Source of the DNA: Balanoglossus misakiensis
Taxonomy: Eukaryota > Animalia > Hemichordata
Assembly (NCBI GenBank): GCA_040954595.2
Contig: CM082584.2
Location: 13,695,337-13,759,336 of the forward strand
Direction of reading: 5' to 3'
DNA: 64,000 nucleotides
The first letter of the stretch is position 1, and the number at the start of each line of letters is the position of its first letter. Made by a program: the position numbers and the translations under genes. Under the pieces are notes generated by a model. That model did not search any database and was not told where the DNA came from. It was given only the letters and a program-made list of their open reading frames with translations. This document shows positions 4,233-27,979 of the stretch, in pieces.

Positions 4233-4451
4233 CCACTCAAACTTGAAGTGAAAAAACTTCCTAATGTTTTGAAGCTGCAAACATTTATTACAACTTTTGA
4301 TTTGAAAGCACACAAAAATGACCATGTTTTAATATCAAATGCATGATGTGGCGATGCGTTTCCCATGGAGCTTTGCGCCACTGAAAAGTTCTGATCACGT
4401 GGTCTCATGCAAACTATCCAAAACAAGACCAAGGCGTTGATGCCAGCAGAC

Positions 4452-4512
4452 ATGGGAACGTCCGTGGTATATGTGACATTGTGGTCGATAGTTGTTCTGG
4501 CGTCTCCGGTCG
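4452..4512 (+). CDS. RPTP exon 1, signal peptide [20 protein letters not shown](DA)
   Basis: Hydrophobic leader; donor G|gtaagt phase 1 matches exon 2; in-frame ATGs also at 4407 and 4440. Confidence 0.85.
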
Positions 4513-6017
4513 GTAAGTGAGCAAATTCAATTTCCATGGGAACGGCCGATAGTTCTCTTGTTGTTCATATTTAGAATGAGGGCCAAGGAAGACCCGAAAT
4601 CCATGTCAATTAAAATGTCACCCGTACTAGTTTAAAGATGTATTTTCTGTGATTTACTTCCGCGTTGCACTTACTATGCATAGTATATAGTTTTGGTCGA
4701 CAGACTCCCTAGTGACCTCTACCTATTTGAAAACAGCGCAGAATTTTCTGTAACAAATCGAACAATTCGGACTGCCTCTAAGGCAAAAAAAAAAAGAGTT
4801 TTGTTTAGCGTCCTCGCGCGCGTCACTTTTAAACATGCGCGTCGAGGCTTTTTTTTCGTAATTTTCGAACCCGGAAATCAACTAATCAGTGTTTTCTCCA
4901 GGATGCGCGATCGCGCGATTCCCCCTCTTTTACACTTGAAGCGCCCCTTGTAACAAGTTCAGAGGGCGACAATCGCCCCTTCGTGAGCAGCCCACCCGGC
5001 CAGTACATGCGCGTCCAAGCCTCCATAGCATGCACCGTCAGTCAAAGCACTGGGAAAACGGCCGATATCACTGCGTGCTGGCCTATACATTTTAACTTCC
5101 CACTCCCCAAAACTATGTTGTAGATGACTTTCACATTCATTCACGTGTAATTTAGCTCCAGGGCTATAGTGTGCAATTGTTGGAACAGCCTATCTGGATA
5201 CTGTCTAAATTTAGAGCACACACTCTGCACTCAAGTGAACTTGTTGTTATGGCGACTTTTGAAATTGGGTTGGCAGAACGTAACAATTTTATGCAAATTA
5301 AAGAAACTGCGTTCCTGCCATGGCGATTATCAAGAATGTATCAGTTTTCCATGACCTTGTTTTCTTACTTAGGAAGGAAAGTCATTCAATATGTACAGAG
5401 ACTGTTTATTTGAGTAGTGTGCCTAGCCACAGATGGGGAAGTGTAGGCAGAAATCTGAAGAAATATATACCACTTCAATTTATTTAACTATTAATGGTTT
5501 CACAATCTAATATTTTGGCAGCTAAACTGAAACTTTTAAAATCAAACAAGAAATTTTTTTCTCAGGTATAGTATTAAAGAAAGACACTATTGTTTTTGCA
5601 GTTGCATTTATTTTATTAATTTCACTCTACTTGCCAGGGGAGCAGTTAATCAGTCACTCTCCTACCACTTGTGTAATTAATTTCAGGAGTTATTTTCAGC
5701 TCTCCAGCATTTTTTTAAATTACATGCCCTGAAAGTTATGCAAGCTGGTGTCTTCCTCTGCAAAATCTACTAATTTAAAGTAGAAAAAAACTTTAACTGT
5801 TAATATGTTGTCAAGTTCACATGTAAAATATTGTAATTTACTTATGCTGTTTTTAATATGGAATGAAGGCAGTTAGTAAGTTAACGTTCAAAATTGTCAT
5901 TCCTTGATGTTTACCTAATTAACATAAATTATGCAAATCATGATTCCCCCCTACTTTGACCAAATCCCTCCTTAATTTTGGACTATTAAAGAAATATTTG
6001 CTGTTCTTGTTCCGCAG

Positions 6018-6049
<32 letters not shown>

Positions 6050-9000
6050 AGCCGCGTCACCGCATCAATTTTGAGATTTTGCTTGGACGCTAAACAAAAC
6101 TCTTTTTTTTTTTGGCCTAATGAAATTTTTTTTCAACACTGGATTAAAACATAACGTCGCTACTCGACTTCGGAAAAAAGTCTTCGTCCGAGTCGACCGT
6201 GACATGAGTCATTGAAATGGCGCACCATTTCGCGGCGCTTCCAGTCTGCTTCGGCGAAATAAAGACACACTTCTTCGAACTTGCCTTTCATTTCATTTCC
6301 GTCGCAATAATGAACTTTTCACACAATATGAAAATAAAAAATATCCTTTGGCTTAGTAGCAGACGTTTGGAAACTTTATTTTGCCCATTTTTCAAATTCA
6401 TAAGATCGCTCTTAAAGCGGAAATGAAATAGTTCGTTTTTGTTGTGAGTTGCTTGCCCTATTAGAACATTGTATTTTTAGGTCCCATTGGTATAGGCCTA
6501 TATACCATGGGACCTTATGGGATGGGTTGCATCTGTATGTATGTATGTATGGATGTATGTATGTATGTATGTATGTATGTATGTATGTATGTATGTATGT
6601 ATGTATGTATGTATGTATGTCTGTATGTCCGTCCACATCAAAAACTTGAAAACCGCTGCGCGTATCACCTTGATATTTGGTGTGCAGATGCAGGCAGGGC
6701 TGTAGATGGGAGTTTGTTCAAACGAAGTTGCCAGGCCCAAAAATATGCAAATTAGCCAGTAAAATGTGAAATTTATCAAAACTCTGAAAGTCAACAACTA
6801 CTGGTCAGATTGCTTTAAAAATCGGTATGCATGTACTTTATGTCAACCTCACATCGACCTGTAAGTGTTAAGTTAATATCATGGATGTTTTATTTTTTAT
6901 GAATTTTTTAGTCTTTTTATAACTTTACTTATACCTCTATGGTTAAGCTATCACGTCTTATTGTGGAATTCTGGTCTGTGCAATAGTCCTGTACAGTGAC
7001 TGTCTATTGGTCAGTGAGCACAATGGGGCCAAAATAAAAGGCAAATTTTTGGGCTCACCTGTAACACCTGCTTAACACATTAATTATGTGCATACCTAAT
7101 TCCAGGCTAACCAATAGGGCTATAGGTTTGGTTTTTGTTGAACATGGACCAGTATAAGGTCAAAATTTCTTGCCCAAATTTTGCATGACCTCAGGTGACC
7201 TTTGACCTACTTTATCTCATCTTGGCATCCAGAGCAGGTACAGACTTCGCGTTTGGAGGGTTGGGACTAAAATTGAAAAGCCAAAATTGGGGGTCACCTG
7301 TGACACCTGCATATCTTATTAATTATGTGCATACCTAATTCCAGGCTAACCAATAGGGCTATAGGTTTGGTTTTTGTTGAACATGGACCAGTATAGGGTC
7401 AAAATTTCTTGCCCAAATTTTGCATGACCTCAGGTGACCTTTGACCTACTTTTCCATATCTTGGCATCCAGAGCAGATATGCTTATTGCTATGTTGCTAT
7501 GTGCTATGTCCTCAAATGGGACCACAGTGTCCTTGTCGCTATTTTTTAGTATATTGTCTGGCTGTGGCTGCGGCCAGTTCCAAGTGTCGAAGCTGGGAGT
7601 CGACTGTTCTACCATAGATGTGCGTACTTGTGTGTATGTTGCCAATCCTTCCACCATGGTTGTTGAAAGTGTTTAGATATTCTCAATTTTACAGATAACT
7701 ACTAAACTAGCATAGCATGCAACAAAAAGGTCAGTCTAAGTCCCAGAGCTAAACGATCAAGCAAATTAAAACAACTAAACTGGTTTTGTTGAGAAGTTAA
7801 AGACTGAACACATTATAGAGCTATCCAGAGTAGAACAAGAAACCAGAGTTGATACTTGGGAGAAAAAGGCTAAAAAAAATAACCAGATGTTATGTTTACT
7901 GGGGCTTTAAGCATGTATGATTGGTAAAAAAAATATCGTCATTTCTTTTAATTGTGGATTTTTGATCATAATAAAAATCTGTAATATAGGGGTCACCATG
8001 CTTGTTTTTGAAATAAAGGGCCATGAACTTATTTGATAATTGAAGAAAAAATACTGAGTCAGTTCTTTTTCACCAATGGTTTGTCTATGGGCAAAACATT
8101 TAACAAAGTTTCTCTCAAGATGAGCGCAGTGACCGTACAATTTTATTTTACCAATAAATTTGTTTTTATTTGATTGAGCTGAGTGTAAAATTTCATGAAA
8201 ATGACTATAGTAGAATTGAGTTTTCTTGCAATTCTAAAAAAACCCACATTAGCTAAGAGAGTATTGGCCGGTACCTTTTTTAATTATCTGGAAAACTATC
8301 AATGTTCACGCTAGGATTTTTTTCTTTGTAGCCACACTCCAAGAGTGAGGAAATCAGAAAGGTTTCTGAAACCCTTGTGGTCCAGTGACTGTGCTAAAAG
8401 TAATGGAATTTTGGAGTATATTGTAAAAAGGGAATATTTAATATACAACTTCATGATCAATTCATTTAACCATCCTTTACAGATGCTCGGTTAGATGTCA
8501 CCGTCTTTAATGCCAAAGCATTACCAAGTTTAAGTGGTAGTTATTTCATTGGTGGATACTCAGCTGGTAACCCAAATGTTGTAGGTACAAATTTTGCATT
8601 TGGAAGAATCCTAGATACGGGTACAGGAGCTGCACTCCCTGCAGGCCATTTAATTGCAGACTTTAAAACCTATGCCAAGAAACTCAACTTACCCTCTGGT
8701 GCTGGCAGACCTGGTGTGTACTACTGTGATGCCAATGCTAACACTGGGGAAACTGAGAGACTGATAACAGTACAGGTTGCTGCAACTGGTAAGTTAGCAA
8801 CAAATCTGACCCCTGGGCATCACTATTTGCAATTTTAGTGACTATTTGAATGTTATAAATCACAAATAATGTAGAAACTGAATACTGCAGCTTCATTTTA
8901 TCTTTGTGTTTTCTTTTTAAAATTAAATCTCCTATTTGCAAGATTTTAGTTTCTGAACTGCAAAAACAGAAGCAATACATATCCATTAGGTCATTAAATG

Positions 9001-12000
9001 TTACAGTTTGCTGGTCTATGCTTGTGTGGGTTGATGGGTGGAGGGATGCATGTTTGGATTTGGGACAGAGGGAGGGAGGTAAGGATGGAGGGGTGGATTA
9101 ATTTTTGACGCTAATATTGTTTTATATGAGCATTCATAATTACTGTTTATGGTACATAAAATTATTTCAAATATATACATGTACAGACGATTTGAAGATC
9201 ATTTTCGTTGTAAGCATTTAAATCAAGGCTTGTTTATTAAGGCTGAAGATAATTGTATGTCTCTGCCAGCTGACATCAAACCAGAGAGTCAAACCAAAAC
9301 AGTGAGTTGGGGAGAAGATGTAACATTGACCATGACAACATCCACCATCGCTGAATCATCATTGAAATGGAGACATAATGGAATACAGAAAACAAACTGG
9401 GATGGTCAGAAGAGTATTACAATCTCATTTGCAAAAACCAGTGACGCAGGAATCTATGAATGTTACACAGATGACAACCAACGAAGTCAAGGACTGCATG
9501 GATTTATGAGACTTATTGTCAGAGGTAATGTATGGATTGTAAGATAAACATGTCAATATTTATCATTGGAAATTATCTCAAATTAACGAATACAAATAAG
9601 TAGCACTGCTATAAGTTTATTGAGTAACGTTCGATATAAAATTTGTAAAACAAGGCCATGATGAACACTATATACACTATACATGTATATGGTACATGTT
9701 ACGTTGTTCATCACTAAGCCAACCAAATTGGCATTTTATACTTGTAGCCTCTCAAAGAGTCAGACATCGTATATGAAAAAATAAATAAAAATATAAACAT
9801 GTTATGTGATTATACAATCACAATGTGCTCCAATCTGCACTGTACAGTGTACTGTTTTCAACTTTTCGCCAAGCAAGATGTGGAAAATCAAAGCTTATTG
9901 CTTACTAAGGCTTGTCTCAACCACCATTTGGGCAACTGTTACCTCAATGTGTATGGCGTGAGCCGTAGACACCCACCGTTTGAAAATGTTTCAGTAACTT
10001 TTGATGAAATTTTGTAGGATGAAGATTTTGGTCAGTCCGTCCTGCATGCTATTTAGATTTTTGGATTGAATTGTTGCAAGTGTCATTTTAAGAACTTTGG
10101 TGCCCCTGGGCCCCATGTTGTTTACTGCCTTTTATCTTGTATATTACTCACAAGATGAGTAGCAATGCAAGATGCATTATAGCTGTACAGATATTTAAAT
10201 TAAATTTGAAAATACATAAACCATTATATTCTCAGCATGTCTTTAATTTACCTTGAAATAAAATTACCCTTGAATTTACAACCTGAAAGAAAACCTGAGT
10301 AAATTCATATCCAATTCCCATTATAGATTGTCCAAATGGAAAATGGGGATTACCAGACTGTTTGTCTTCATGTCCAATATGTTACAATGGAGGAATATGC
10401 AACTCTGACACTGGTGAGTGCATATGTCCGCCTGGATTTAAGGGAAGTAACTGTGAAATTGGTGAGTAACATCATCATGTTATTATATTGCAACATACTA
10501 ACTGGCAGTTGTGTAGATGAATTGGAGAATGGAAGAGTTTCACTGCAAGTTGCAAAGCCAACTGTTTCAGCCCTTGTTTACTTGAAAGTGATGAATATTA
10601 GGCCTGGCATTGTGATATTTCTACATGTCCATGTTCGAAAGTATACACTGCATCACTGCATCCTCTCTGGTAAGTGATCAATTGAAAAAGGATCCCAAGA
10701 AGTAACAAGTACTTGATGTACAGTGATTTTGGCTAACAAGTTGTATTACACTTGTGACTTGTGAGAATCCACCACAGCTGGTTGTTGTTGAGGACAAATA
10801 TGGTCATTGTAGGATGACAGCATAGCTGTCTGTGATTTATACAAAATAAAGAGGATGCATGAACACCCCCATTTTCTGTTTTGTTTTCCAAAAGACACAC
10901 GTTCACACTTTAAAATAGCAAAGAATTTAATGGTTTGGAGGACCAGCATTTTTCTGGATTTCTGTCCCTGTGGTTAGGACTATAACCTTATAATAGTCAG
11001 ACAGCTACACATGTAGGTCCCAACATGATAGGTCATGGTCACAAACGTAGAACTGATTTGGAATAGCATAGTTAGGTATCTTACCTCACACCTGGCTCAT
11101 TTGCTTCCACAGAAAGAAAGTTTTACCCGCATGTGTTGAGGCTACAGGTGGGGGAAAAAGGCTCTTTTGACAATGCCCCAATCCTCTTTGAAAACAATTT
11201 TGAGGATACTTGTAATAAAAATATGTGGCATCATCATGTTTATGGAGCCTCATTCTTGAACATAAACCATCTAAATTCTCAAATTCGTGCATTAACACAG
11301 AGTGTGGGATCGATTTGATCCCACACTCTCGATCCCACACTCCCAGCGGCCAGGAGTTTGAGAAATTAAAATGAATGACAGTTCTGTATTTTGAGAACCG
11401 TCTTGTATTGGTATGAAAGGTTAATTTCTTTCTCAAATTTCCTTTATCATGAGTTCTGGTAGTAAAACTACCATGATCGCTGTAAATATTACTACACTTT
11501 TAGTTTACTTGCTTATGATATAAAAGATTTCTTAATTGATTTGTCTTCCAGGCTGTGGTAAGAATAAGTGGGGAATAGAGTGTGGTCGTGGGTGTTCAAG
11601 TAACAATGATGATGCATGTCGCAGCGTTATGTTGTGCATAGCTGATCCCTATGGGTGTTCATGTGGTGCATCATATGGAGGACTAGACTGTGCAACGGGT
11701 AAGTAATATGTTATGACCTTCCGTAGATCTGTAGTTCAGAGGGATGCATTGATTGGGCTCTAAATGTCAATTTCTTTTTCAATACAATCCAAAATGGCTA
11801 CCTTCGGATGGCTCTTTTTTGGCTCACATGTTAACACAAGCGTTAAGTTCCAATGGCATCAACTTGAAATTAAATTTTTTTCAATCAAAATCTCTTTCAT
11901 AGAAGGATTTTCAAATGTTGTCTATTAATTGTGTTAGTTCAAGCTCCATGCAAGGTAGTGTACATTTGCTACAGGTACACTGGTACGCTTAATCTTCCCC

Positions 12001-15000
12001 ACAAATAAAGCCAGCTATGTCAACACTAACAGACCCAGGATAAACTCTTGTAAGGAAGCCTTCTCCAATATGGTGTTCACACGGAAACCATTGAAATGTA
12101 TCTGAAATGTCTCAGCTCAAATACTGGCATTATGTGTGAATGGTTTAAGTGGTCCTGCAATGTTTCAGATTTGAGACGGTCCAGGCAGACCTGTGCTGGT
12201 GTAAAGGATTAACATGTTTTTGCTGTCCATGGGGCTGAGGGTCAGGGTCTATGCATAAACTTTGTGTGTGGGGACACAAAGCGACTCAAAGGATTGACGC
12301 TCTGTGTTTACGAATGGCAAATAGTGTCTCTGAAACGTTTCCAGTTTTACCAAGTGTGAACATGGTACAGTAGACATAATATCCTTGCCTCACATGACTT
12401 ACAGGAGGTGTGAACGTTTTGATATCCGCAACTTGAATACGACGCATTGTCGACCAAACTTCGTGTAATAAGCCCTAATTATAATTCTTTTATGATTATT
12501 AAACTTTGACACAAGTGTAATCTGTCCATGTTCACACATAATGCAGAGTTCATTGTCCATAATTTCGAATGGAAATATGGTATAGGAGATACAGACACTT
12601 ACAGTTTACACAGCTGCAGTGTTGCATTATACACATGATGACTGACAATGAGGGCAACAGTGTATTTTGATGACCGAGGGCGCTGCTAGTCACAACTAAA
12701 ACTGTCTTGTTTTCCCGCCCGAGGGAAAACAGACTGTTTTGGTGTGACTGGCAGTCCCGAGGTCATCTAAAATACACTGTTGCTCGAATATGTCAGTCAT
12801 CATGAGATTTGTAACACACCAAACACGGAATTTTATCAAGACGGGGCAACAGTACCGGGCAGAAACTGATCGAAATGATGCCCTAGGGAACAGTTCAAAA
12901 TGACTAAGGTCACGTGACAGCGTATTGACGAATCACGATCGAGGGTTCGCTGCATGGTGTGTTACAATAATGATTCTCTCAACGTCTACAGAGTATATGC
13001 CTGCTTTGTCTTCTTTATCTTGACAGATTGTTCAAGTGGCACGTATGGTTCTGGATGTACACAGACGTGTCATTGCACCAATGGGTGTGATATAGCTACA
13101 GGTGCATGTATCAGTGGAGGTACATGTCAGTCAGGGTGGAGTGGAACAAATTGTCAGGGTAAGTGTCAGATTTTTCCGCGCAGGAAATGCACAAAGTGTT
13201 TTTCCATAAACATTGTTACATCCTATTTTATCATGTGTTCCTTTTAAATACAAAAGACTTATTTATTTTCACCAATAGCCAAATATTTGTAATCATTCAG
13301 TATATTTCTTTTTGTAGTCCCTGATTTATGCCCTACTGGTTTCTATGGTGACCTGTGCAGTTATGAATGTCACTGCAAAGACAATGCAGCATGTGACAGG
13401 ATAAATGATTTGTGTTCAAATGGAGAATGTGCTCCAGGATGGATTGATGTTCATTCAAGTGGTCACTGTCAGCAAGGTGAGTTACTGAAACTCAGCTTCC
13501 ATTTCATTTGTGTTAAATTACTGATTACTGTCCATTACCGGTATATGGTATTAGGATTTTCTCTTGAAGTAATTAGCAACCTTTGAAAATATTTGGTTCA
13601 TATGCTAATTTCTCAGAAAATTTGAGCTGGCTTCTCTACATGCCTGTGGTTATTTTCAGTGGGGAAGTCATTAGTCTTTGATGCACACTTTGTGCTTACA
13701 TGTTGGTTACACATGTACAGTACACCCCATTTGGTTGTACAGGCACCATAAGGTTTGTTGTAAGTTATTGGTTGGGTGGGGGTGATGATGTGTATTTGAT
13801 GTTGAAGTGTAATGATGGCTGGTAGCTAGCATTTCACCTAAAGGATCAGTGTATCACTACCACACCTGGGTTATTGAGACATGATACCCCATATGATCTT
13901 GCAATTTGATTATCAGTTTTCATTAAAATTAGACTCTGTTGTGTTGTTTTATCAAGCAATGAATGACTTATGGCTTCAATTTTCAGATGGCTCTCCAAAA
14001 TTAATAGAATTCAAGAATACGAAAGTAAACCCAGGTGAAGAGACACACTTTACATGTAAAGGTCGAAGCAATCCAACTCCACAACAGAATCAAATGGAAT
14101 ATTATTTAATCTCTGGATCACCAACTGCTGTAATGTTTGATGATATTGAAGAGGAAGCAGATTATCAATACACAGCAAATGCCAGAGGTGTTACTGTGAA
14201 CATTGGCCAGATCTATTATTGCTACATAAACATTTTTCCTTTTGGCAGTGTTAGTGAGCCGTTATCCCTTGAGTTGTATGGTAAGTAAAAGTCAATATTA
14301 TCAAATGCTTTAGTTTTGTGATTTCACATCATAAGCATGATCAAAAAAGGTAATTCTACATGTTGTGACTGTTATTTAGAGAACACTCAGACTGCAGTAG
14401 AGCAGCAAAATTTGAGATGTAAATTAAATAAAGTATAAATTGTTGGAATGGTCTTTATTCGCGAATGTGATGCTGTTTACATTACAGAGATATAATGCTT
14501 TCTTTTTAATAAAAAAAGAACAAAATGAAGTGATACTCCACAGTCAAATAAACAAATTCTTTGGGCTCTGTCAATAGATTAAGTGTGTCATCCATCTCAT
14601 GTGAACAAGTAGAAAGTATTTTTGCAGCAAAGGTTCCATCTCTATAATGAAATACCAATTGAAGTGACCAATTAATAGCTTCATACCCATGATAGTTTGC
14701 ATTTATCAGATCTTTTGGTTTGAATATTCAGCACTACCAAGATTTGCAGATAATAACAAACCAGGCGTTACAGTTCAAGCAACACAAGCAACCGTAAGCT
14801 GGCAGAAATGGGATTCAGAAAGTGATGTTGGTGATGGACCTGTAGAAGCTTACTTAGTTTACTACAAAAAGGCATCAGATGATGATTGGACGTCTCATGG
14901 TACAATTACAGTATCTGATCCTGATCAGTCGAGTTACACTACAGACATCACTGTTTTAGACTGGTCTACTAGTTATGATTTCACAGTGACTGTCAAGAGA

Positions 15001-18000: not shown

Positions 18001-21000
18001 TTAAATTCCATCTTTCAGATATCATACACTTCCACTGAATCAGTGTTCAAAGACACACTGATGGAAACCCGATCATTGCTTGTTGAAGGCACAAAAAATA
18101 CTCACACACTTACAAATTTAAGTCCTGGAACGACATATAGCATTAATGTGAATGCCAGCACTTCCAAGGGATTTGGAGAACCCTCAACTGTGTCAAGTGG
18201 CACTTCATTTACAGGTAAGTAGATTCTTATTGTACAGTATAAAATCCTTTTCACAAATGAGAGTGCATGTTGGGAAACCTTGATTGGAAAAACAGTCCTT
18301 TGATTTGCCTCAGTATATTATTGCCATTCTGAATTTCAAAGGTAGGAAATTGGAGCTTTTGTCATGCAGTAAGAAGGATCTGACAGTTACTCTATAGTCA
18401 TTCACTTTAATTTCATGTGACACTCTACAAGAATCCACCACCCAAGAAATCCAGAACATTTGCACAGTAAATTGATTCGTTGTGAACTTATTGTGTAAAT
18501 GAATTTGGCCAATTTGTTACCCATCATCTACCGTTCTACTGATTCCTCAGACTTTTCTTGCCTTTCAGTTGTAGATTATACTCCATATACCTATCTATCA
18601 ATAATTTACTTTCAGTTGATATTTCAACAACGCTGCCCATGACAGATGTATCAACTGATGTTGTACACTCTGAGACGAAAGCACAAGTTACTCTACCAGG
18701 CCTCTCAGAGGACTCAGGCATTTCTGAAGACACCACACTCGTGTAAGTGTAGCACAGTTTTTTTCATGGTAATACAACTTTGTCTTGTACTCATTATAAA
18801 CTGAACCTCTTTTTGCAGAACCTCGTCCCATGTTCCCTTTCTGCATTTGTCCAATTCACTAGTAAATGAGACTCTTCGTTTCTAACTGTGGAATTTTCTA
18901 TTTAACCAGACACTTTTGGGATTGAACTTTCATTGATCTGTGTTGTTGATTTTGTGTGTCTAACTAACTAGAGAGAAAAAAATGTATAATAAATATATTT
19001 CATTTTTCAGTGACTACATCATAGTTCTGGAATATGAGCAAACCATTGAGACAAGACGACGACGAGAAATAGATACTTCAAAACTTGGAGAGTACGATCC
19101 TTCTGGTCCACCTTACTACATCACAGCATTACTCCCTGTCAATAATTTACCCGAGACATTTATAATTGGTGATGACGGTGTGTATGGTGGTTATTCCAAT
19201 GTTCCACTCACTACAGGGAGACAATATGGTGTCTACTATGGACTTAGGAGTGATGTTGATGGGGTAAGATAATTTTGAGCATTAAAAGATCAATTTATTC
19301 TTCAAATATGTATATATCAAAAGTATCAAATATAATTCTCCAAGCAAAGAGGAAGCAAGCTAGCAAGTCTGTCGGTCACATGTGTTGATCTTATTTTTAA
19401 ACTGGCCATCTTCTGACAGCAAATCAGTTTTGTATACATTATTTTCTCACCCCTGATCAGTGGCCATGTAGGTTGACCAGACTCTAACTTCTGATAAACT
19501 TTGTGGTGGTTCACAGACACATCTTGGTTTCAGAGATATTAATTAAAGTGAATTTCTTGGTGTGTTTTTTACAGGAATCTGTCTACCACCTTGATGAAGA
19601 CCCAGCACTGTCCTTCAGGGGTATGTGACACAGTGATTTCTAACTTGTTTGCATTCTGAGGGTTGCTCATATGAACCAGTTTATGCACTATGTCCTGTCT
19701 GTTTCTGCTGTAGATAGCTGCTAAATGACATGGCTATGTTTTTAATAGTCCAGTTACATTTTTTTCTAATATGTTTAAAAGGTGGTGGCCCTGAGCCAAC
19801 AGGATCACCAATAGGTGCCATAGTTGGTGGTATAGTGGCTGTTGTGGTAATCGCTGCATTGGCTGTCGTAGCTGTCTTCCTATTCAGACGGTGAGCAACT
19901 TTGATTTAGAGCCAATAATAGTAAGAGGCTAATGTTATACCTGTTTGAACTTGACTTCATTAAAACTCAGTATAAGAACACTGTGCAATTAGTATCTTAA
20001 ATGAGCAGAATAAATTATTTAAGAAAAAAACTTGTTAAACTTTTCATTTTGTGTAACATTCAAGAGATGGAGGACATGGTTTGCTCTTTATTTTGGAACT
20101 CCTACACTACAAATTTATTGAAAATCTGTAATATGAAGGTAGACTATAACTTGTATTTCATTGTTCTTCATGTTATCTGATGCAGGTATCGACCAGACCA
20201 GGATAAAGAAAAAGACAGTCAAAATGAGCTTCACCTGCCGTGCCAGAGTTCTGAAAAGGACAAAGAATTCAAATATCAAAATGTGGATTTTGATAATCTG
20301 AATTCTGGTAAGAATTGAGTTGAAATATTTTGTTTTAATTTGTACAAAGGATAAATTAGTAATAGCAGATTTAATGTAACTATGTTAAATTGATATGCCT
20401 ACAGATGAACAGGCAAGAAAACCCATCAACACCGAATCACAGTATGCAAATGTGGATGAAATAAGCAAGAAACCAAACAGAAAGAATGGTTCTCCGATGA
20501 CAGAGTCGCCCTATGCAACCCCTGATGACATCCACCCACAAGTAGATAGCCCACCTAAGATAGCAAAGAAACCAGTCATGGATAACCCACCTAAGCCACC
20601 ACAGAAACCTGTAATTCCTGCCAGAGACAATGCACCTGCACCTCCAGAGGTCGCCTCCAAGAAACCATCGTTGCCAAAGAAACCACAAGCTATTCCTAAG
20701 GCAACACTGTCGCCGAGAGACTCGGAGCATGTCATCCTTGTGGAAGAGTTGTCCGAGTGCATCACGAGGAAGAGAAAGAATGATGAGTTTAAGAAAGAGT
20801 TTAAGGTGATATGCTTTTGAAATGTGATTGCCTGCAATGTATTGAAAATTGAGTAATGTGAGGTCACTCATTTGTGTGTGACTTTAGAGAAATCCAGAGA
20901 CTGCTATTCTGTAGACTGAAATTTTACTTTGATTTCTTTTTTAGAGTCTCCCTGCTGGCCAGGTGAAGCCAGTATCTGACGCCAAGATTCCAGACAATGC

Positions 21001-24000
21001 CAAGAAGAACAGATTCCGTAACATTCTTGCGTGTAAGTAAAATGAGTTTTCACTGTGTGAGATGATTTCATTGAGCCAAAACAATCCACAAATGGGAATA
21101 CCCTGGGGTTGTGTGTGGTTATAGAAAATTCCATTTTAGTCTGGTCATTTTCTTGAAAGTTTCACAAACGTTGCTTGAAGATTTGTGTTGTCCCATGAAA
21201 CAGATTTGAAGGTGAATTTCACAGGTGGAACCTAATATAATAATTATGAATGAGTTTTGGGCAAACATGTGGTGCACATTCTTTGATGTAGAATTTCTCA
21301 TTGTATTATGTTACATCCTTTTTTAGATGACCATTCTCGTGTACGGCTAGATCTTATTGAAGGAGATCCACATTCGGATTACATTAACGCAAGTTATATC
21401 GATGTAAGTTGAATCTGTTTTGCATGGTCAGTTCACATTCTCAGCAACATACCTTATGAAAAAGAACTGCTGCATTATTCAGGATGTTTATGTTGTAGAC
21501 AGCAAATTTTGTATCAATCTGTATAGTAAAATTTAGCAGTGGAGATATTTTATACTTACCGAGTCTCATCTTGAAACTTTATTTTTCACTAATTTGTGAA
21601 AGAAAATTCAATTCAGATAAAATGAAATGTAATCATAGCATGGACAAATGTTTTGTATTCTGGCTTCCTAATTGAGGTTTTAGACGCTGCACTGCCCAGA
21701 GACATACTGATACAATCCACCATAACAAGCAAGTTCAGTACCTTGCTGTGGTAATTGAAAACATTGTAAATTTAATGGAAGCCGAGTTTTTAAAACTGTA
21801 CAGGAATTTTGAAATTTTTTGCTTGATTGCCAGGGTTACAAGAAGGAGAAGGCATATATCGCTGCACAAGGTTTGTATTACAATTTTTTGGCACTGTTCA
21901 CTTTTAGACCGTGATTGTGGTGTTGATAATGTACTGTACAATGTAGGTGACTTGTCCTGATAGAATACGATTTTTCACTCTGTATTGAACTGACTTGGCC
22001 TTAAGCCACACTTCCAACATGCTGTTGTATTACACATGAGCAATTCACCCATGCTGCAAACCCCAAAAAGAGTTGGTCACATATGTACCATGTGAAATAT
22101 TTTATCACTGTGTCAGTGTTTGTACATTATGTGATAAGATTCAAATGTACTGACTTTGTTTATGAAAGCGTGCCAAGACAAAAAGGTATTCAGTAGTTGT
22201 GAAAAACGATTACTTGTCCTAACATACACCAAAACAACTACATATTAATATTACTGATATTTGCTATAAATGAGACTTATACCTGGTGTGTTTTTATACA
22301 GGACCCAATAACTTTACAATAGATGATATGTGGAGGTTGATCTGGCAGGAAAATGTTACTATTGTCTTAATGGCTACCAACTTATCAGAAAATGGAAAGG
22401 TATTTAATTAATTTAAAACTTCCAAACTAAGTGCTGTAATTTCTGCAGTAATAAAATCAATATCAGCAACCAAGGCAATGGGCAAAAAGAGTCATGTCTT
22501 CCAGACAATAATCATCACTTTTCATGTGTTTTAATGTCTACCAGGTCAAATGTCACCAGTATTGGCCTGAAAAAGAAAGTCAATGGTATGGAGATATATG
22601 TGTTACACTGGCAGGCAAGGAATCATTTGCAGACTATATGGTCAGGACGTTCAAAGTCCAAATGGTAGGTTTATAAACTGTTAATATCGCAATTTGCATT
22701 AGTTGGTAGAGTTGACATTTATTTGTGTTACATGAAGTTGACAAGTAATTATCCATAGATTTGATAAGAATGTTTCAAAAGCCAGGTGGAGACAGGAATT
22801 CCAGCCACAAAGACCCATAATACATCAGCTGATATACAAGCTCTCCATAGTCTTGTTACGTGTAGTTGGCAACTTTTTTTCATAATGCAATTTAGTCCAT
22901 AGCAGAACTAAATTTTCTAAGCGTCCTTGGAATGCGGAAGCCCTTATATATCCAAGGAAACTAGTTATGGCAATCTTTTTATGCTCAGGTGACCACGGCC
23001 ACTTACATTTCTAAATCTCTGTGATTGGTGCGGTAAATTCCAGGTGGCGAAATTGATACAGGGTGGTTGAATCAACAGAAGGGCTAATAGAGGTTTATGC
23101 TATTGACTGTTCAACCCTAAAAGTTCCCAGAATTTATTAAGATATTTGTACCAGGGATCAAGGGTACAGCTTAGAGTTTTATGATGCTTTCAGTTCTGCA
23201 AGAAAAACAAAAAACGCTCATGTCAACGCAAAGTTATTTTCTTTTTTCTGAAATAATTGTATTGCCACCAGAACACTGTAGGTGTACGTTATCAGAAACT
23301 GACCATGAGAAGAAATAACAATGTTTATTTCCCCCAAAAAAACAAGTAAAGATAAAGTGTAAATTTACAAAGTGATTCAATTATACATAAAGGAGGAAAT
23401 AGGAGTGCCAAAAGATATCTGTCCAGCAACTAATCAAGTCTACCTCCATACTTATAAACCTTTTTGATAAGAAATCTGGGTACAGTACTAAGTGTAATTT
23501 ATCTTTCAGGATAACTCCAAAGTTCGTGTTGTCAAGCAGTTTCACTTCACTGTCTGGCCTGACATGGGCGTGCCGATCTATGCCACTGCGGTACTGGCTA
23601 TTCTGAAGCATGTCAAGTCTTGCATTCCACCGAACTCTGGTCCGTTGTTTGTACACTGCAGGTAAAGCCAACTGATGAAATGTTCTTTAATAATCTACAG
23701 TCAAAACCCTGATGATATGCGAATAGCTGATGTCATTATAGAGAATAAAGCTGCAAGAGAGGGCTGGAGATGTTCTGACAACCACTGATGCGATATGCTC
23801 TGGCTTTTCATGTGAGGAAGCGTCACATCTACTTGGTCTCAAACCCAATCTAGCCGTCCTCTTCTATTAAAGCTTATTTCATTCTCCATTTGAAAATCAT
23901 TATCGTGTAAAAATCAGCATGCTCAATTGATTTAAAAAGGCAACAGTCACAATAGAAATGCCAAAAATTAAACCAATGTAGTCAAACTGACGGAGTTCAA

Positions 24001-27000
24001 CATTTGAATATTGCAGTGCTGGAGTGGGTCGAACAGGTACCTTTATTGCAATTGATGCCCTGTTGGAAATGGCCAAACAAGAAGGCAAAGTCGACATCTA
24101 CAACTTTGTCAGGAAATCCAGAGAAAACAGAATGAATTTTGTGCAAGTAGAGGTATGAGTCAGTCATCTTTTTTGATAGTTTTCACCACAGTTTTTTCGT
24201 GATAGCTTTTGTTTTAATTTTCACAGTCATCACATACAGAAAGTGATGGATGTGTTTACCCTTAAAACATAGGATCCATGAAACATTATTTGCAGATGAG
24301 TTATGGTATTGTGCAGTTTTAAGAAAGAATATAAAATCTAACAACAAATAAATGTCAAAAGTGGGGACACACGCCATGGCAACTTGTTTACATGTTCTTA
24401 AAATATTCAAGGAGTTTGCATACCAATGTCCTACTTAACAATAAAAAATACAATAGCTGAGGTATGCTTGACAGACACTGATAAGGACTCGATCCTAAGG
24501 TATGCGATAATTTATACAGTCTTGGGCGTTGAGTGTACTACTTTGCCAAAGGTCACTTTTGTTTTGAATAATGGGAAACTGTGCATAGATAATCATGGTG
24601 CATGGAATAATTTTATGTATATTTAGGAGCGAATTTTTCCTGATAGATGATTGCATGAGCATATAGCAGTGTTCCAAGAGTTTTTTTCTGAATGCATAGC
24701 ATATTCTACTAGTAGCCACAAATTCAAAGTAGTTGTAGTTGTTGCAGTAGTATAGGGGTACAGTTTGTGAATTTCTCTGTTGTTCATTGCACACACAGGA
24801 TCAGTACGAGTTCATCCACACAGCTCTGATGGAAGCCACTGTGGCCGGCAGCACTGCCATAACTGCATCTGATTTCAGACAAGTGTTTGGGAGGCTGCTG
24901 AAAGTTGATAGGCAAACCCAGACAATAGCATTAGAGACAGAATGGAAGGTAAGTGTGGCAGAGAATGACTACGATATATGTCAGTGGATGAGGAGTACAA
25001 TACAATACAATACAATATTACAGTAAAATACTACAATACAGTGCAGAACCAATCAAGCATGATCAGAAAAAAAAGTGGATTACATGTTCAGATTTAAACA
25101 ATCGATATGTTTTGTTGTATTCTGCAGAATCTTGGTAAAGTAAGCCGTGTTGCCAGGGATGATGAACTCTCTGTTGGACAAGCACCGGAAAACTCGCACA
25201 AGAACCGATTCCCAGATATCGTTCCATGTAAGGGAAACATGTCTATAGACATTCTCTCGGTGTACTCTTAGTGCCAAATATGGGGGCAGATTCCAATGAC
25301 CACATCAAAAATTGAAGGGACATGCATTTGGCAAAGTAGCAGATACAGTATAGAAGTAGTAGCTAGTGTACATCAGATATCAATCAAATGGGAAGTAAAT
25401 AGGTCTGAATTTGTGATAAGCACATCCAAATATGAGAAAAATAAACAAGGAACTCTGCAGGGGCACATCAAACTACCGGTACAGATTAATTTTCTGCGTA
25501 ACCGTACATTTCCCCTTTTTCTATTTTTGTGATAGCTATCTTGAATCATAGACCAGGGTCTATGCTTGGATGTGGTGAATACAACAGAAACAAATGCTCA
25601 ATTGAGTTAGATACCAAAATACGAATATGGACACAAACAGACTTGAATCACTTATTCTGTGTTTGTAAAACATGTATACTGCCTACCAATATTGTTAGTT
25701 TTAACAGATCTGAAATAACTTAGGTAACAAATGTTTCCTTGTCAACAGTGTTGACCAATTTCCACTTACATTCATAGCATTATAAGAATTACTGAATTTT
25801 ATGTACCACTAGGGATTTCACTTGCTTTATTGAACGTATATTTCTCTTTACAGTCAACAGATATCGTCCTCATCTGATGACCCACATTGCTGACAGCAAT
25901 TCAAATGATTACATCAATGCAAGTTTTGTCAGTGTAAGTGCAGATTTCATGATAAACTGAGCTGTCAGTATTTATAGTGTGGTGTTCGGAACCATAGATT
26001 CTCTCTTCTTTTCTTACTGTGTGGTGGCAGTATGAGTTGGCACAGAGTCCTTCCAACACATTTGTGGAAACTGCCAGGATTGTGGGGTTGCTGTTATAGG
26101 ACCCTTCAATCAGCTAACAGTTTAGTTGAGGACAAATATACCTCTCCAAGGTTGATCCTCTATAGTGGCCCATTCATTCTTCTACATGGGCATCAGAGGC
26201 CGCACAGAATTTCAACACTAGCCGCATGCAGAGATGAATAATTTACTTTAATTTGTAAACCGGTAGCTGGTTGCATCAGTATGTAACAACATTCTTAACT
26301 GTTTTCACCTTAGCATATTCAAGACTTTGCTATATCAAGGATTATATCGTCTTTGGAATGATGAATTTGTTGTGATGGCTATATTGACAGATATATTCCT
26401 CTTTCTTCACAGGCTTATGTTGAAAAGGATGCTTTCCTTGTGACCCAGACACCATTACCGAGCACAGTGGTCGATTTCTGGAGAATGATCTATGATTACA
26501 ATTCTTATTCCATAGTTGCCTTGGACGCCATGAACACAAAAGACACAGTAAGTTGTACTTGCCAAACCAAACATTTTTTGTACAAATGATAATATTATCA
26601 TCATATGAAAGACATGTCAAATCTGGTTCTTGCATGACCTCAACTGCATCTGCCCTTACTTTCTCTCCACAGAGCATTGGCATGTACTGGCCTGAAGATG
26701 GTGCCCTTCAATGTGGACCGTTTAGTATTGAGACCGTCAGCAGAGATGTCACTGGCAGCATTGTCATCAGAACTCTTACTCTCACAGATGTAAGTATCAG
26801 TGTTAACCATGGGTAGATTTCTCACAGAAACGACATAAACCCCATGACAATATCAGAGGTTGAAACCTCTAATCATCTATTGATTCTGTTAGAAGAATTC
26901 TCATACTGTCTGATTAGCACCAGCAAACACTTTTTGACAGCATTCTGACTGAGAACATAGCCATATGTTTCTGTATTTAAATGTGTAGAAGAATTCTCAT

Positions 27001-27979
27001 ATTTGCTGCATTAAAACCTGTTGTGATCTTCTTTCATGATGTATCCAGCAACGGGGAAGTATGCGAACCATCCAACAATTCCAGGTGACAGGTTGGCCAG
27101 ACAACAAACCCAGACCAAATCAAAAAGGTGTCTTTGTAGAGTTGATGGGTATTGTTGAGAAATGGCAACAACAGACAGGCAATGGACCAATCACTGTGCA
27201 CTGCATGTAAGTATATACATGCACTTCAAGCAAATTACAGTTTGATTGTTTCCCTGAAAACAGTTCTCTATTGTGATTTGGAAGATGCCTCCTGAGTAAA
27301 ACTAGTGGCAATCCAGGTTTTCTCCAACAACAGTAAAATTTCTCTCACAAATAAATGTAATGTTTTTTTGTCTCCATCTCAGCAATGGTATTGGTCGAAG
27401 TGCCGTGTACTGTGCTACTGTCTCTACATGTGAACGAATCAAAGTCGATCAAATGGTGGATGTTTTCCAGGCTGTCAAGACACTCAGAAGTAACAGGCCA
27501 AACATGATTGAATCATATGTAAGTTGATGGTGTGATCATCTAACCTAATGTGTATACTTTTGCAAGAGGACATGCCATTGGTTGTCATTGAATGTCTGGG
27601 CTCCATACAGGTCATTTCATCAGCCAGTACAGTTAGGCTTATGTGGACAGGCCTCCAAGCCAGTGGAATAATGTATTTGCTAGTAAAGCTATGTTTATTT
27701 TGGGTGGGGCTCTCTCAGAAACATGCACCCCTTGGCAGAACATGACCAACCTAACCAAGATTGGCAATGCTGAAACCACTGAGTCCAATTGGTCAATTTT
27801 TTTGTAACTACTTCATATTGTCCAATCAAACTGAGCCATTTGACACTATGCAATGAATATGTTATTTAAAATCTTGTCTCACATGTGTTTGTCATTCTTT
27901 TCAGGATCAGTACAAGTTCTGCTATGAAATCATCCTGGATTACTTCGAATCCTTCGACACTTATGCCAACTTCCAGTAA
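4452..27979 (+). CDS. Receptor-type protein tyrosine phosphatase with Tie-like ectodomain (SP-Ig-Ig-EGFx4-Ig-FN3x4-cleaved FN3-like-TM-Pro-rich-PTP D1-PTP D2), 36 exons, 5451 nt CDS, 1816 aa
   Basis: 36 exons join through GT-AG introns with consistent phases and no internal stop. Motifs: [30 protein letters not shown] (D1); DYINASF, WPD, VHCINGIGRS (D2); [27 protein letters not shown]. Confidence 0.95.
4782..6117. mobile_element. Non-autonomous DNA transposon, 1336 bp, TAA TSD (Zator- or PIF/Harbinger-like)
   Basis: TIRs of about 32 bp: GGC(A)11GAGTTTTGTTTAGCGTCC at 4782-4813 and its reverse complement at 6085-6117; TAA on both sides (4779-4781, 6118-6120); no transposase ORF. Confidence 0.8.
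6534..6628. repeat. (ATGT)n microsatellite
   Basis: More than 20 tandem tetranucleotide units. Confidence 0.97.
7051..7476. repeat. Direct tandem duplication, period 239 bp
   Basis: 7051-7237 is near-identical to 7290-7476 (TAATTATGTGCATACCTAATTCCAGGCTAACC...CTTGGCATCCAGAGCAG). Confidence 0.92.
8483..8788 (+). CDS. RPTP exon 2, Tie-type Ig1
   Basis: [36 protein letters not shown]; phase 1-1. Confidence 0.9.
9270..9524 (+). CDS. RPTP exon 3, Tie-type Ig2
   Basis: [36 protein letters not shown]; phase 1-1. Confidence 0.93.
10327..10461 (+). CDS. RPTP exon 4, EGF-like 1
   Basis: [45 protein letters not shown]. Confidence 0.95.
11552..11698 (+). CDS. RPTP exon 5, EGF-like 2
   Basis: [49 protein letters not shown]. 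Confidence 0.95.
12074..12362. mobile_element. Possible degenerate Harbinger-like MITE
   Basis: Inverted TGTTCACAC / GTGTGAACA near the ends plus internal inverted CTGAAATGT/ATGTTTCAG-type motifs; no clear TSD. Confidence 0.35.
12634..12966. mobile_element. Fold-back (double hairpin) non-autonomous repeat
   Basis: Imperfect palindrome of about 170 bp at 12634-12804 (CATGATGACTGACA..TGTCAGTCATCATG), then a second inverted pair TGTAACACACCA (12810) / TGGTGTGTTACA (12955). Confidence 0.7.
13027..13158 (+). CDS. RPTP exon 6, EGF-like 3
   Basis: [44 protein letters not shown]. Confidence 0.95.
13318..13476 (+). CDS. RPTP exon 7, EGF-like 4
   Basis: [53 protein letters not shown]. Confidence 0.93.
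13987..14280 (+). CDS. RPTP exon 8, Ig3
   Basis: [42 protein letters not shown]. Confidence 0.92.
14732..15061 (+). CDS. RPTP exon 9, FN3-1
   Basis: [45 protein letters not shown]. Confidence 0.94.
15367..15437 (+). CDS. RPTP exon 10, FN3-2 N-half
   Basis: [24 protein letters not shown]; phase 1-0. Confidence 0.88.
15984..16227 (+). CDS. RPTP exon 11, FN3-2 C-half
   Basis: ..[30 protein letters not shown]; phase 0-1. Confidence 0.92.
16585..16811 (+). CDS. RPTP exon 12, FN3-3
   Basis: [41 protein letters not shown]. Confidence 0.93.
17146..17215 (+). CDS. RPTP exon 13, FN3-3 end
   Basis: [23 protein letters not shown]; phase 0-1. Confidence 0.9.
17515..17621 (+). CDS. RPTP exon 14, FN3-4 N-half
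   Basis: [36 protein letters not shown]. Confidence 0.92.
18019..18214 (+). CDS. RPTP exon 15, FN3-4 C-half
   Basis: ..[25 protein letters not shown].. Confidence 0.93.
18616..18742 (+). CDS. RPTP exon 16, membrane-proximal FN3-like domain start
   Basis: [28 protein letters not shown]..; phase 1-2. Confidence 0.85.
19011..19263 (+). CDS. RPTP exon 17, furin site and membrane-proximal domain
   Basis: [41 protein letters not shown]. Confidence 0.93.
19575..19620 (+). CDS. RPTP exon 18
   Basis: [15 protein letters not shown]; phase 0-1 bridges exons 17 and 19. Confidence 0.82.
19782..19890 (+). CDS. RPTP exon 19, transmembrane helix
   Basis: [28 protein letters not shown]. Confidence 0.93.
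20186..20307 (+). CDS. RPTP exon 20, juxtamembrane
   Basis: [23 protein letters not shown]; phase 2-1. Confidence 0.88.
20405..20805 (+). CDS. RPTP exon 21, Pro-rich insert plus wedge region
   Basis: [52 protein letters not shown]. Confidence 0.9.
20945..21032 (+). CDS. RPTP exon 22, D1 (KNRF loop)
   Basis: [29 protein letters not shown]. Confidence 0.94.
21327..21403 (+). CDS. RPTP exon 23, D1
   Basis: [26 protein letters not shown]. Confidence 0.96.
21834..21870 (+). CDS. RPTP exon 24, D1
   Basis: [12 protein letters not shown](G). Confidence 0.94.
22302..22399 (+). CDS. RPTP exon 25, D1
   Basis: [33 protein letters not shown]. Confidence 0.95.
22545..22664 (+). CDS. RPTP exon 26, D1
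   Basis: [31 protein letters not shown]. Confidence 0.95.
23510..23661 (+). CDS. RPTP exon 27, D1 WPD loop and catalytic Cys
   Basis: [24 protein letters not shown](S). Confidence 0.96.
24017..24152 (+). CDS. RPTP exon 28, D1 P-loop and Q-loop
   Basis: [30 protein letters not shown]. Confidence 0.96.
24799..24948 (+). CDS. RPTP exon 29, D1 end and D1-D2 linker
   Basis: [27 protein letters not shown]. Confidence 0.95.
25128..25227 (+). CDS. RPTP exon 30, D2 start
   Basis: ..[14 protein letters not shown]. Confidence 0.93.
25540..25571. mobile_element. 18-bp palindromic insertion with near-perfect 7-bp TSD (P-element-like footprint)
   Basis: CTTGAAT|CATAGACCAGGGTCTATG|CTTGGAT. Confidence 0.65.
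25854..25933 (+). CDS. RPTP exon 31, D2
   Basis: [27 protein letters not shown]. Confidence 0.94.
26413..26547 (+). CDS. RPTP exon 32, D2
   Basis: [29 protein letters not shown]. Confidence 0.95.
26673..26789 (+). CDS. RPTP exon 33, D2
   Basis: [28 protein letters not shown]. Confidence 0.94.
27049..27206 (+). CDS. RPTP exon 34, D2 WPD loop and Cys
   Basis: [30 protein letters not shown](I). Confidence 0.95.
27383..27518 (+). CDS. RPTP exon 35, D2
   Basis: [31 protein letters not shown]. Confidence 0.95.
27905..27979 (+). CDS. RPTP exon 36, C-terminus, stop TAA
   Basis: [24 protein letters not shown]. Confidence 0.95.
   Translation, partial: DQYKFCYEIILDYFESFDTYANFQ

Follow-up and report, generated by a model that had tools for sequence, protein, structure and literature searches.

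What does a receptor do when the head of a Tie kinase is joined to a tyrosine phosphatase in place of the kinase? This question is raised by a gene in a stretch of 64,000 nucleotides (hereafter, the window) of the enteropneust Balanoglossus misakiensis (contig CM082584.2, positions 13,695,337 to 13,759,336 of the forward strand). A sequence-only reading of the window had described one 36-exon open reading frame running from a Tie-type head through a transmembrane helix to two protein tyrosine phosphatase (PTP) domains, and had proposed that the product is one half of a paired-receptor system. Our analysis, based on comparison of sequences and of a predicted fold, confirms that the gene is a real enteropneust receptor in which a Tie-type head is joined to a tandem PTP. 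With a probability of roughly 0.68, we read it as a receptor whose TIE-homologous head sits on a stalk and tandem phosphatase resembling those of the R2B receptor PTPs (PTPRK, PTPRM, PTPRT, PTPRU), and which is likely to be a phosphatase positioned by cell contact or by a ligand, one of a family whose near-identical heads feed different tails.

Gene structure and the Tie-type head

The whole gene occupies window positions 4452..27979 on the forward strand. Rebuilt from the window DNA, its 36 coding exons give a 5451-nt frame of 1816 residues with no internal stop, and all 35 introns are bounded by GT-AG. The sequence GTRAG is found at 26 of the 35 donors, compared with 3.3% of all GT in the background, and the pyrimidine fraction at acceptors is 0.70 against a background of 0.49. 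Introns between exon 16 and exon 24 reach at most 430 nt. The single reading frame and domain layout proposed earlier are thus borne out by the rebuilt frame, the splice signals, and the domain matches. The Glandiceps talaboti protein P0013 (1823 aa) matches the window protein domain for domain with 57% identity end to end, 73% in the first phosphatase domain (D1), and 69% in the second (D2), and the last ten residues are identical. It is colinear with window exons 2–36 (34 exons compared) at 36% identity or more in each, the exceptions being exon 10 (7/24) and the linker exon 18 (5/15). Among Logan contigs, two (5733 and 5502 nt) code for proteins of 1854 and 1741 aa with the head and both PTP domains; they have no space for introns, so we read them as transcripts of other animals and as indirect support for a single mRNA.

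The protein is built, in order, of a signal peptide, two Ig domains, four EGF modules, a third Ig domain, four FN3 domains, a membrane-proximal domain, a transmembrane helix, a juxtamembrane region, and the two PTP domains, all encoded on the forward strand. Exon 1 (4452..4512) carries the signal peptide, which an in-frame ATG at 4440 could extend by 4 residues. Ig1 lies in exon 2 (8483..8788), Ig2 in exon 3 (9270..9524), the four EGF-like modules in exons 4–7 (10327-10461, 11552-11698, 13027-13158, and 13318-13476, together spanning 10327..13476), Ig3 in exon 8 (13987..14280), and the first FN3 domain (FN3-1) in exon 9 (14732..15061). Introns 1–9, from the signal peptide to FN3-1, are in phase 1 throughout, so that each head domain is one symmetric exon. 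FN3 domains 2–4 follow in exons 10–15 (15367..18214) and the membrane-proximal domain, of the Pfam Fn3_PTPRU type, in exons 16–18 (18616..19620), with a furin-type RRRR site at 19054-19065; this domain and this site are additions to the earlier domain list. Exon 19 (19782..19890) encodes the transmembrane helix, placed by hydropathy at about residues 1065-1089. The juxtamembrane region, with the tyrosine motifs YQNV, SQYANV, and YATP and a proline-rich stretch, and then the start of D1 lie in exons 20–21 (20186..20805); D1 continues through exons 22–29 (20945..24948), and D2 occupies exons 30–36 (25128..27979), closing with YANFQ and the stop. A Pfam scan of 15 window exons placed Ig in exons 3 and 8 (weakly in exon 8, E 0.011), EGF in exons 4 and 6 (weakly in exon 6), fn3 in exons 9, 11, 12, 14, and 15, and Fn3_PTPRU in exon 17 (E 2.6e-8), and returned nothing meaningful for exons 2, 5, and 7; Y_phosphatase was found in exons 27, 28, 34, and 35.

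Three lines of comparison, namely sequence, profile, and the predicted fold of a paralogue, show homology between this head and that of TIE2. First: sequence. The Saccoglossus relative P0008 matched TIE2 in the PDB with E about 2e-38 over a stretch that runs from late Ig1 through Ig2 and three EGF modules; TIE2 made up three of its six matches and sidekick the other three, at E 2.5e-4 to 5.6e-4. Exon 5, which encodes EGF2, had TIE2 as its sole significant match (E 8e-5, all else E ≥4.8), and exon 3 alone gave generic Ig matches, with TIE2 absent among the best 60 of 131. Second: profile. Pairwise searches with Ig1 gave no significant TIE2 match. A profile built from the Ig1 domains (44 in all) of invertebrate receptors that carry a PTP and run on 80 vertebrate TIEs matched 46 of them, 45 at the N-terminal domain and 8 at E<1e-3 (best 2.6e-12), and its reversed-sequence control scored -0.5 bits. 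Third: fold. An AlphaFold model of the Ptychodera flava paralogue P0011, made from an alignment of 69 invertebrate-only sequences (predicted local distance difference test, pLDDT, 91), ranked TIE2 first in Foldseek and overlaid TIE2 (2GY5, residues 23-343) with Z 35 and a root-mean-square deviation of 3.3 Å over 306 residues; the best non-TIE2 structure reached Z 16.8. The overlay ends at model residue 345 and so leaves Ig3 without a TIE2-like placement; the Ig3 of the window gene scores 7.3 bits against the vertebrate TIE Ig3 profile.

These results uphold the view of the sequence-only reading that the head is of the TIE type and not a MEGF/SCARF or generic Ig-EGF one: its best PDB matches in sequence and in fold are TIE2, both Ig domains included, and the superposition on the TIE2 ectodomain that it had suggested gives a strong overlay, with P0011 standing for the window protein. 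Of the TIE2 motifs it had named, the Ig2 end, the EGF1 stretch, and the DPYGCSC of EGF2 are seen in the PDB alignments; the Ig1 match fails pairwise and holds by profile and fold; the Ig3 match is not supported for this gene.

Angiopoietin binding by TIE2 takes place in Ig2 (PMC8560823), the domain that exon 3 encodes here. In the alignment, the Ig2 C-C' region of PTP-type heads, where the strands line the angiopoietin site in TIE2, is several residues shorter than that of TIE2 and different in sequence, so that the ligand face appears not to be conserved. A Tie-type fold therefore does not imply an angiopoietin ligand, and, to judge from the alignment, binding of an angiopoietin in the manner of TIE2 is improbable; the angiopoietin-like, fibrinogen-domain ligand suggested earlier is not indicated. 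Among enteropneust relatives, Ig2 is the best conserved part of the ectodomain, with 59-80% identity. Ig3 is far more variable than Ig2 or the EGF exons (28-43% over at least 80 residues), and could set specificity or be a relaxed spacer. A search with exon 2 retained 8 proteins among 573 candidates, seven from P. flava (62-68%) and one from Saccoglossus (54%), which makes enteropneusts the nearest kin of the window gene.

The phosphatase tail and its stalk

In D1, the WPD motif, the P-loop, and the Q loop are intact, and the phosphotyrosine loop reads KNRF in place of KNRY (exon 22, region 21027-21032, residues 1285-1288), as it does in Glandiceps P0013. D2 retains the WPD motif and has an altered P-loop, HCINGIGRS. 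This CxNG form of the D2 P-loop is found in 8/8 enteropneust and 7/9 R2B rows, compared with 0/7 LAR and 0/9 R4 rows. In searches with P0013, PTPRS, LAR, PTPRA, and PTPRE reach similar scores as whole tandems (473-508 bits); single-D1 structures put PTPRT/K/M/U (283-323 bits) ahead of the group that follows, to which PTPRA, E, and G belong (255-270 bits). The membrane-proximal domain is 43% identical to that of PTPRK over 54 residues, and the furin-type site is common to the window protein and PTPRK (P0206).

Trees of D1+D2 were built for 170 rows with FastTree only and for a 35-row subset with IQ-TREE under LG+G4 without a mixture model; the outgroups held no R1, R3, or R5 rows, and the vertebrate anchors other than PTPRK P0206 were identified by their architecture and C-terminal sequence. 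A LAR+R4 clade excludes the window gene (98/95 without one Nematostella row). Placement of the window gene within R4 was rejected (approximately unbiased test, p-AU 1.1e-5), and the D2 P-loop differs as well. Trees and topology tests therefore put the window gene in a broad R2B-like radiation and not as a plain PTPRK/M/T/U orthologue. The C-terminal YANFQ had prompted the idea of a PTPRA/E-derived tail, which the trees rule out; endings of the YANF type are widespread in the set and carry no diagnostic weight. A single orthologous group of all Tie-headed PTPs was likewise rejected (15/35 rows, p-AU 0.002), some amphioxus ones being R4-related.

Some rows of these trees deserve mention in their own right. 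The amphioxus PTPs P0038, P0166, P0173, and P0246 fall in the PTPRA/E (R4) clade and are also Tie-headed, whereas a vertebrate-type PTPRE-like row has a very short ectodomain. A lungfish receptor phosphatase of 1852 aa (P0265), outside the classic R2B clade and with an Fn3_PTPRU domain, has a cysteine-rich N-terminal stretch of 900 residues without a Pfam match and heads a clade of eight representatives.

It is in the stalk that TIE and R2B come together. The FN3-1 domains of 73 vertebrate TIEs were made into a profile, which was run on 288 other proteins (the mis-cut row P0202 was ignored in its display alignment). Vertebrate R2B FN3-1 domains came top (58-69 bits), with amphioxus head-bearing PTPs at 43-57 bits and the Glandiceps Tie at 46; the window gene scored 27.6 bits, about 40th, and the best LAR-type FN3 20 bits. 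The first FN3 domain of TIE is thus closest to that of PTPRK/PTPRT, and a second FN3-1 comparison gave the same group order. Against the TIE Ig3 profile, the amphioxus PTPs led with 35-45 bits, followed by PTPRK at 21 bits (E 0.002). In an FN3 tree of 37 rows and 108 columns (LG+G4 without a mixture model, long branches flagged), a GDGP-type group stands against seven of the eight LAR-type rows and one misplaced Logan row (97/93). One branch of the tree (98/96) unites TIE1/2, the Glandiceps Tie, amphioxus P0193/P0200/P0202, and R2B, and another (93/81) the window gene with chelicerate and echinoderm PTPs. The idea that the FN3-1 of the window gene itself is closest to TIE was ruled out by its rank in the profile search and its place in the other subclade. 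Exon 9 alone found multi-domain titin first and PTPRM second, with TIE not among its 4 matches, and enteropneust-only profiles run on TIE and R2B were weak (FN3-1 6-19 bits, Ig3 under 7 bits).

The simplest reading of these comparisons would be that the ectodomain divided early into a Tie-type and a PTP-type form, and that swaps of tails and, in the ancestor of vertebrate R2B, replacement of the head with MAM came later. A bolder version, which we hold at even odds, makes the TIE kinases and R2B sister products of one pre-chordate, probably pre-bilaterian, family, whose Ig-Ig-EGF-Ig-FN3 ectodomain was repeatedly swapped among kinase, phosphatase, dead-phosphatase, and short tails. PTPRK/M/T/U would then be Tie-bodied receptors with MAM for a head, amphioxus would be intermediate, and starfish and amphioxus would hold true paired receptors.

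Spread of the head, twin receptors, and rival explanations

How widely is the head used, and on which tails? Head searches gave 150 matches of 1290 candidates and 258 of 878, from each of which the best 120 were used; with the best 150 of 21615 from a PTP search and the window model, the combined set came to 368 proteins, a set biased by its queries and with isoforms included in its counts. The head core is present in at least 210 of the 368, and head plus PTP in at least 59. Among the matches listed, head-plus-PTP proteins come from hemichordates, four echinoderm classes, amphioxus, chelicerates, and unassigned records; the 80 vertebrate head proteins are all without a PTP, and named mollusc, annelid, or insect examples are absent, which is weak evidence. 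A search across phyla had been suggested with lophotrochozoans in view, and it succeeded for hemichordates, echinoderms, and amphioxus and not, among these matches, for named molluscs or annelids.

The head is also found on an amphioxus adhesion G-protein-coupled receptor (P0184), an Acanthaster PKD1L2 polycystin (P0154), a Diadema ZP-domain protein (P0024), and a Holothuria zonadhesin (P0118). Only 16 of the 150 best PTP representatives carry the head core, and close PTP relatives have trefoil, kringle, WSC, F5/8, sushi, or fibrinogen domains instead. The alternative that best survives builds on these facts: the head would be a phase-1 cassette open to free shuffling, with a generic role in adhesion or spacing, and the twin receptors by-products of tandem duplication and gene conversion without paired signalling. 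It gains from the head exons, all of phase 1-1, and from the grouping of heads by species. It is opposed by the ordered unit Ig1-Ig2-EGFn-Ig3-GDGP-type FN3, which is kept on R2B-like PTPs of chelicerates, ambulacrarians, and amphioxus; since this unit is retained and Ig2 is the best conserved part, we argue for selection on a binding surface, and consider free shuffling unlikely, although it deserves to be taken seriously.

Trees of the heads comprised 121 rows with FastTree only and a 32-row subset (18 PTP-bearing and 14 kinase-bearing) under LG+G4 without a mixture model. Heads cluster by lineage or species and not by tail; a single clade of PTP-bearing heads was rejected on the 32 rows at a cost of 776 log units (p-AU 0.0004). 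Near-identical ectodomains with differing tails are seen in the related genomes of Glandiceps, Ptychodera, Patiria, and Branchiostoma. Identity within such pairs is 79.8% over 900 residues in Patiria (kinase P0028, phosphatase P0031) and 75% over 1371 residues in Branchiostoma (kinase P0040, phosphatase P0166); the heads of P0145 and P0146 are sisters. Compared as single kinase domains, the Patiria kinase is Tie-like (TIE2 284 bits, FGFR1 235), and it lies outside the clade of vertebrate TIEs and the Glandiceps Tie. The Glandiceps Tie kinase P0178 is 66% identical to the TIE2 kinase domain and groups with vertebrate TIEs (97/97); it is the sole head-bearing enteropneust kinase found. Its head is 31-35% identical to PTP heads and falls, with weak support, outside their clade.

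No close kinase twin was found in enteropneusts, where the twins are D2-only receptors (P0002, P0004, P0012) or end in short tails, 90-115 residues long, with many tyrosine motifs (P0001, P0005, P0015). The D1-bearing P0013 and the D2-only P0012 of Glandiceps are 74-88% identical per 100 residues over residues 101–600, and the heads of active and D2-only paralogues cluster within species in the head tree, as expected from recent duplication or gene conversion. The kinase/phosphatase pairs proposed earlier are therefore represented by the Patiria and Branchiostoma twins and not by any found in enteropneusts.

Could the gene nevertheless be the phosphatase half of a Tie kinase/Tie phosphatase pair, responding to angiopoietin-like, fibrinogen-domain ligands and opposing its own Tie kinase as a built-in counterpart of VE-PTP? 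The modelled head fold matches the ligand-binding region of TIE2, a true Tie kinase exists in hemichordates (P0178), and a fibrinogen C domain, the type by which angiopoietins bind TIE2, occurs in the same chain as the head in 14 proteins (P0030, P0036, P0037, P0039, P0040, P0043, P0047, P0049, P0052, P0058, P0125, P0166, P0174, P0184). All of these examples are from amphioxus, which counts against the pair in an enteropneust, as do the distant and differently placed Glandiceps Tie head, the shortened Ig2 C-C' region, and TIE1, which has the same head and is not known to bind angiopoietins directly. A starfish coelomocyte proteome contains a Tie-2-like kinase and a PTPRF-like phosphatase, without a statement of whether the latter has the head (PMC13409769). 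We regard this pairing as improbable. That the locus is an annotation artefact, a separate Tie-like ectodomain gene and PTP gene read as one, is very improbable: the locus model comes from genomic DNA, and several P. flava and Glandiceps models are ectodomains without PTP domains, but a single frame crosses 35 canonical introns with short ones through the junction, P0013 is colinear over its full length, and the transcript-sized Logan contigs join the head to both PTPs.

We return to a contact- or ligand-positioned phosphatase with a TIE-homologous head. For PTPRK, furin cleavage, an active D1, a D2 that selects substrates, and junctional substrates have been described (PMC12067748, PMC6440744). 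By analogy with R2B, furin would cut the enteropneust receptor at its RRRR site to leave two associated subunits, and the Ig-Ig-EGF head would bind a partner on a surface or in the matrix and park the receptor at cell contacts. There, D1 would dephosphorylate phosphotyrosine on junctional or receptor substrates selected by D2, and the juxtamembrane YxN and proline-rich motifs may dock SH2/SH3 adaptors. The rest of the family suggests two further steps: by competing for a shared partner, paralogues without D1 would weaken or invert the signal, and the opposite output would come, in starfish and amphioxus, from Tie-like kinases whose ectodomains are twins of those on the phosphatases.

Several points weigh against this interpretation. 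For the head, the vertebrate Ig1 profile run on invertebrates was not significant (best E 0.6), the modelled fold is that of a P. flava paralogue 62-78% identical to the window protein in the head exons, and the structure predictor had already seen TIE2 in training. For the tail, KNRF in place of KNRY may lower the activity of D1, to judge from its sequence; an exclusive clade of four enteropneust and three vertebrate R2B rows was rejected at p-AU 0.016; and the deep nodes of the PTP tree are poorly settled, with enteropneust PTPs and R2B both outside LAR+R4. For the family, the twins rest on predicted RefSeq models in tandem arrays that are possibly chimeric, their high identity may come from gene conversion without shared function, and the head occurs also on unrelated tails. 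The window gene, finally, was read from genomic DNA alone, the 64-kb window holds no paralogue, and twins in its own species are assumed from relatives.

The surroundings of the gene are sparse. A small gene with two coding exons lies upstream on the forward strand (1735-2303) and belongs to the CD225/dispanin (IFITM-like) family, with Pfam E values of 7.7e-5 and 2.1e-5, each exon alone being under the curated cut-off. Downstream, from 28000 to 64000, Pfam on 16 of the longer open reading frames and tblastn against the 368 proteins gave no match, exon-like candidates are few, and no tandem paralogue lies within these 36 kb. In P. flava, Glandiceps, and Patiria, many relatives lie on one chromosome-scale contig per species. 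A direct repeat pair of 219 bp (91% identical) in intron 1 (7024-7479) and an inverted repeat of 170 bp in intron 5 (12634-12804) are possibly transposon remnants.

Significance and comparison with known systems

The literature searched held no description of Tie-headed phosphatases or of a link between the TIE and R2B ectodomains; papers on sea urchin phosphatases, the amphioxus kinome and immune surveys, TIE2 structure, and R2B gene structure fell outside it and may, with their supplements, show the architecture. The Tie-headed PTP of the window belongs to a wide, under-described family. If our reading is true, two vertebrate receptor families treated as unrelated acquire a concrete origin, and the Tie head predates vascular signalling by angiopoietins and is more mobile than that role implies. 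Few on/off receptor pairs would be as direct as a kinase and a phosphatase that share one ectodomain, and the 79.8% identity of the Patiria pair makes paired signalling testable in a laboratory species. Should the twins share no ligand, the result reduces to exon shuffling and a useful evolutionary link. Annotation also stands to be corrected, with dozens of genes named PTPRA, PTPRF, PTPRS, PTPRT, or Tie hiding this design. The sequence-only reading had anticipated that automated pipelines would hide it, and the names found (PTPRT-like, PTPRS-like, PTPRA, PTPRM) agree.

The vertebrate phosphatase that acts on TIE2 offers one comparison. VE-PTP (PTPRB) is of the R3 type, with FN3 repeats and a single PTP domain (PMC5336234). 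Both VE-PTP and the window protein are receptor phosphatases that might act against a Tie kinase; unlike the latter, VE-PTP has no Tie head, and its PTP domain scores a much lower 231 bits with P0013 as the query. R4 (PTPRA/PTPRE) and R2A LAR share with the window protein a tandem PTP and similar whole-tandem scores, as well as a YANF-type C-terminus in PTPRE/PTPRA-like rows, but form a separate clade.

TIE1 and TIE2 (PDB 2GY5, 4K0V, 9LV4) have in common with it the Ig1-Ig2-EGF head and an Ig domain followed by a GDGP-type FN3-1. They differ in having three EGF and three FN3 domains, counts supported in part by the profiles run here, where the window protein has four of each and a membrane-proximal domain; the latter also ends in a tandem PTP, without a kinase domain, and does not conserve the Ig2 ligand face. 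The head-plus-PTP architecture itself recurs in the RefSeq relatives Glandiceps P0013, Ptychodera P0002/P0004, Patiria P0031/P0032, Branchiostoma P0156/P0193/P0038, Centruroides P0278, and Nymphon P0054, although domain counts and extra N-terminal modules vary and the names, taken from assorted vertebrate PTPs, leave the head unmentioned.

The R2B receptors differ from the window protein in the head and in one domain of the stalk: it has Ig-Ig-EGFx4 in place of MAM, which was found in none of the 15 window exons scanned nor in six relatives (the control, PTPRK P0206, was positive), and one extra FN3. The two have in common an Ig-FN3 stalk, a GDGP-type FN3-1 such as exon 9 shares with TIE1/TIE2 and PTPRK/PTPRM, an Fn3_PTPRU domain with a furin-type site, the best D1 matches, the CxNG P-loop of D2, and, as read from their motifs, a tandem PTP with a canonical D1 and an altered D2.

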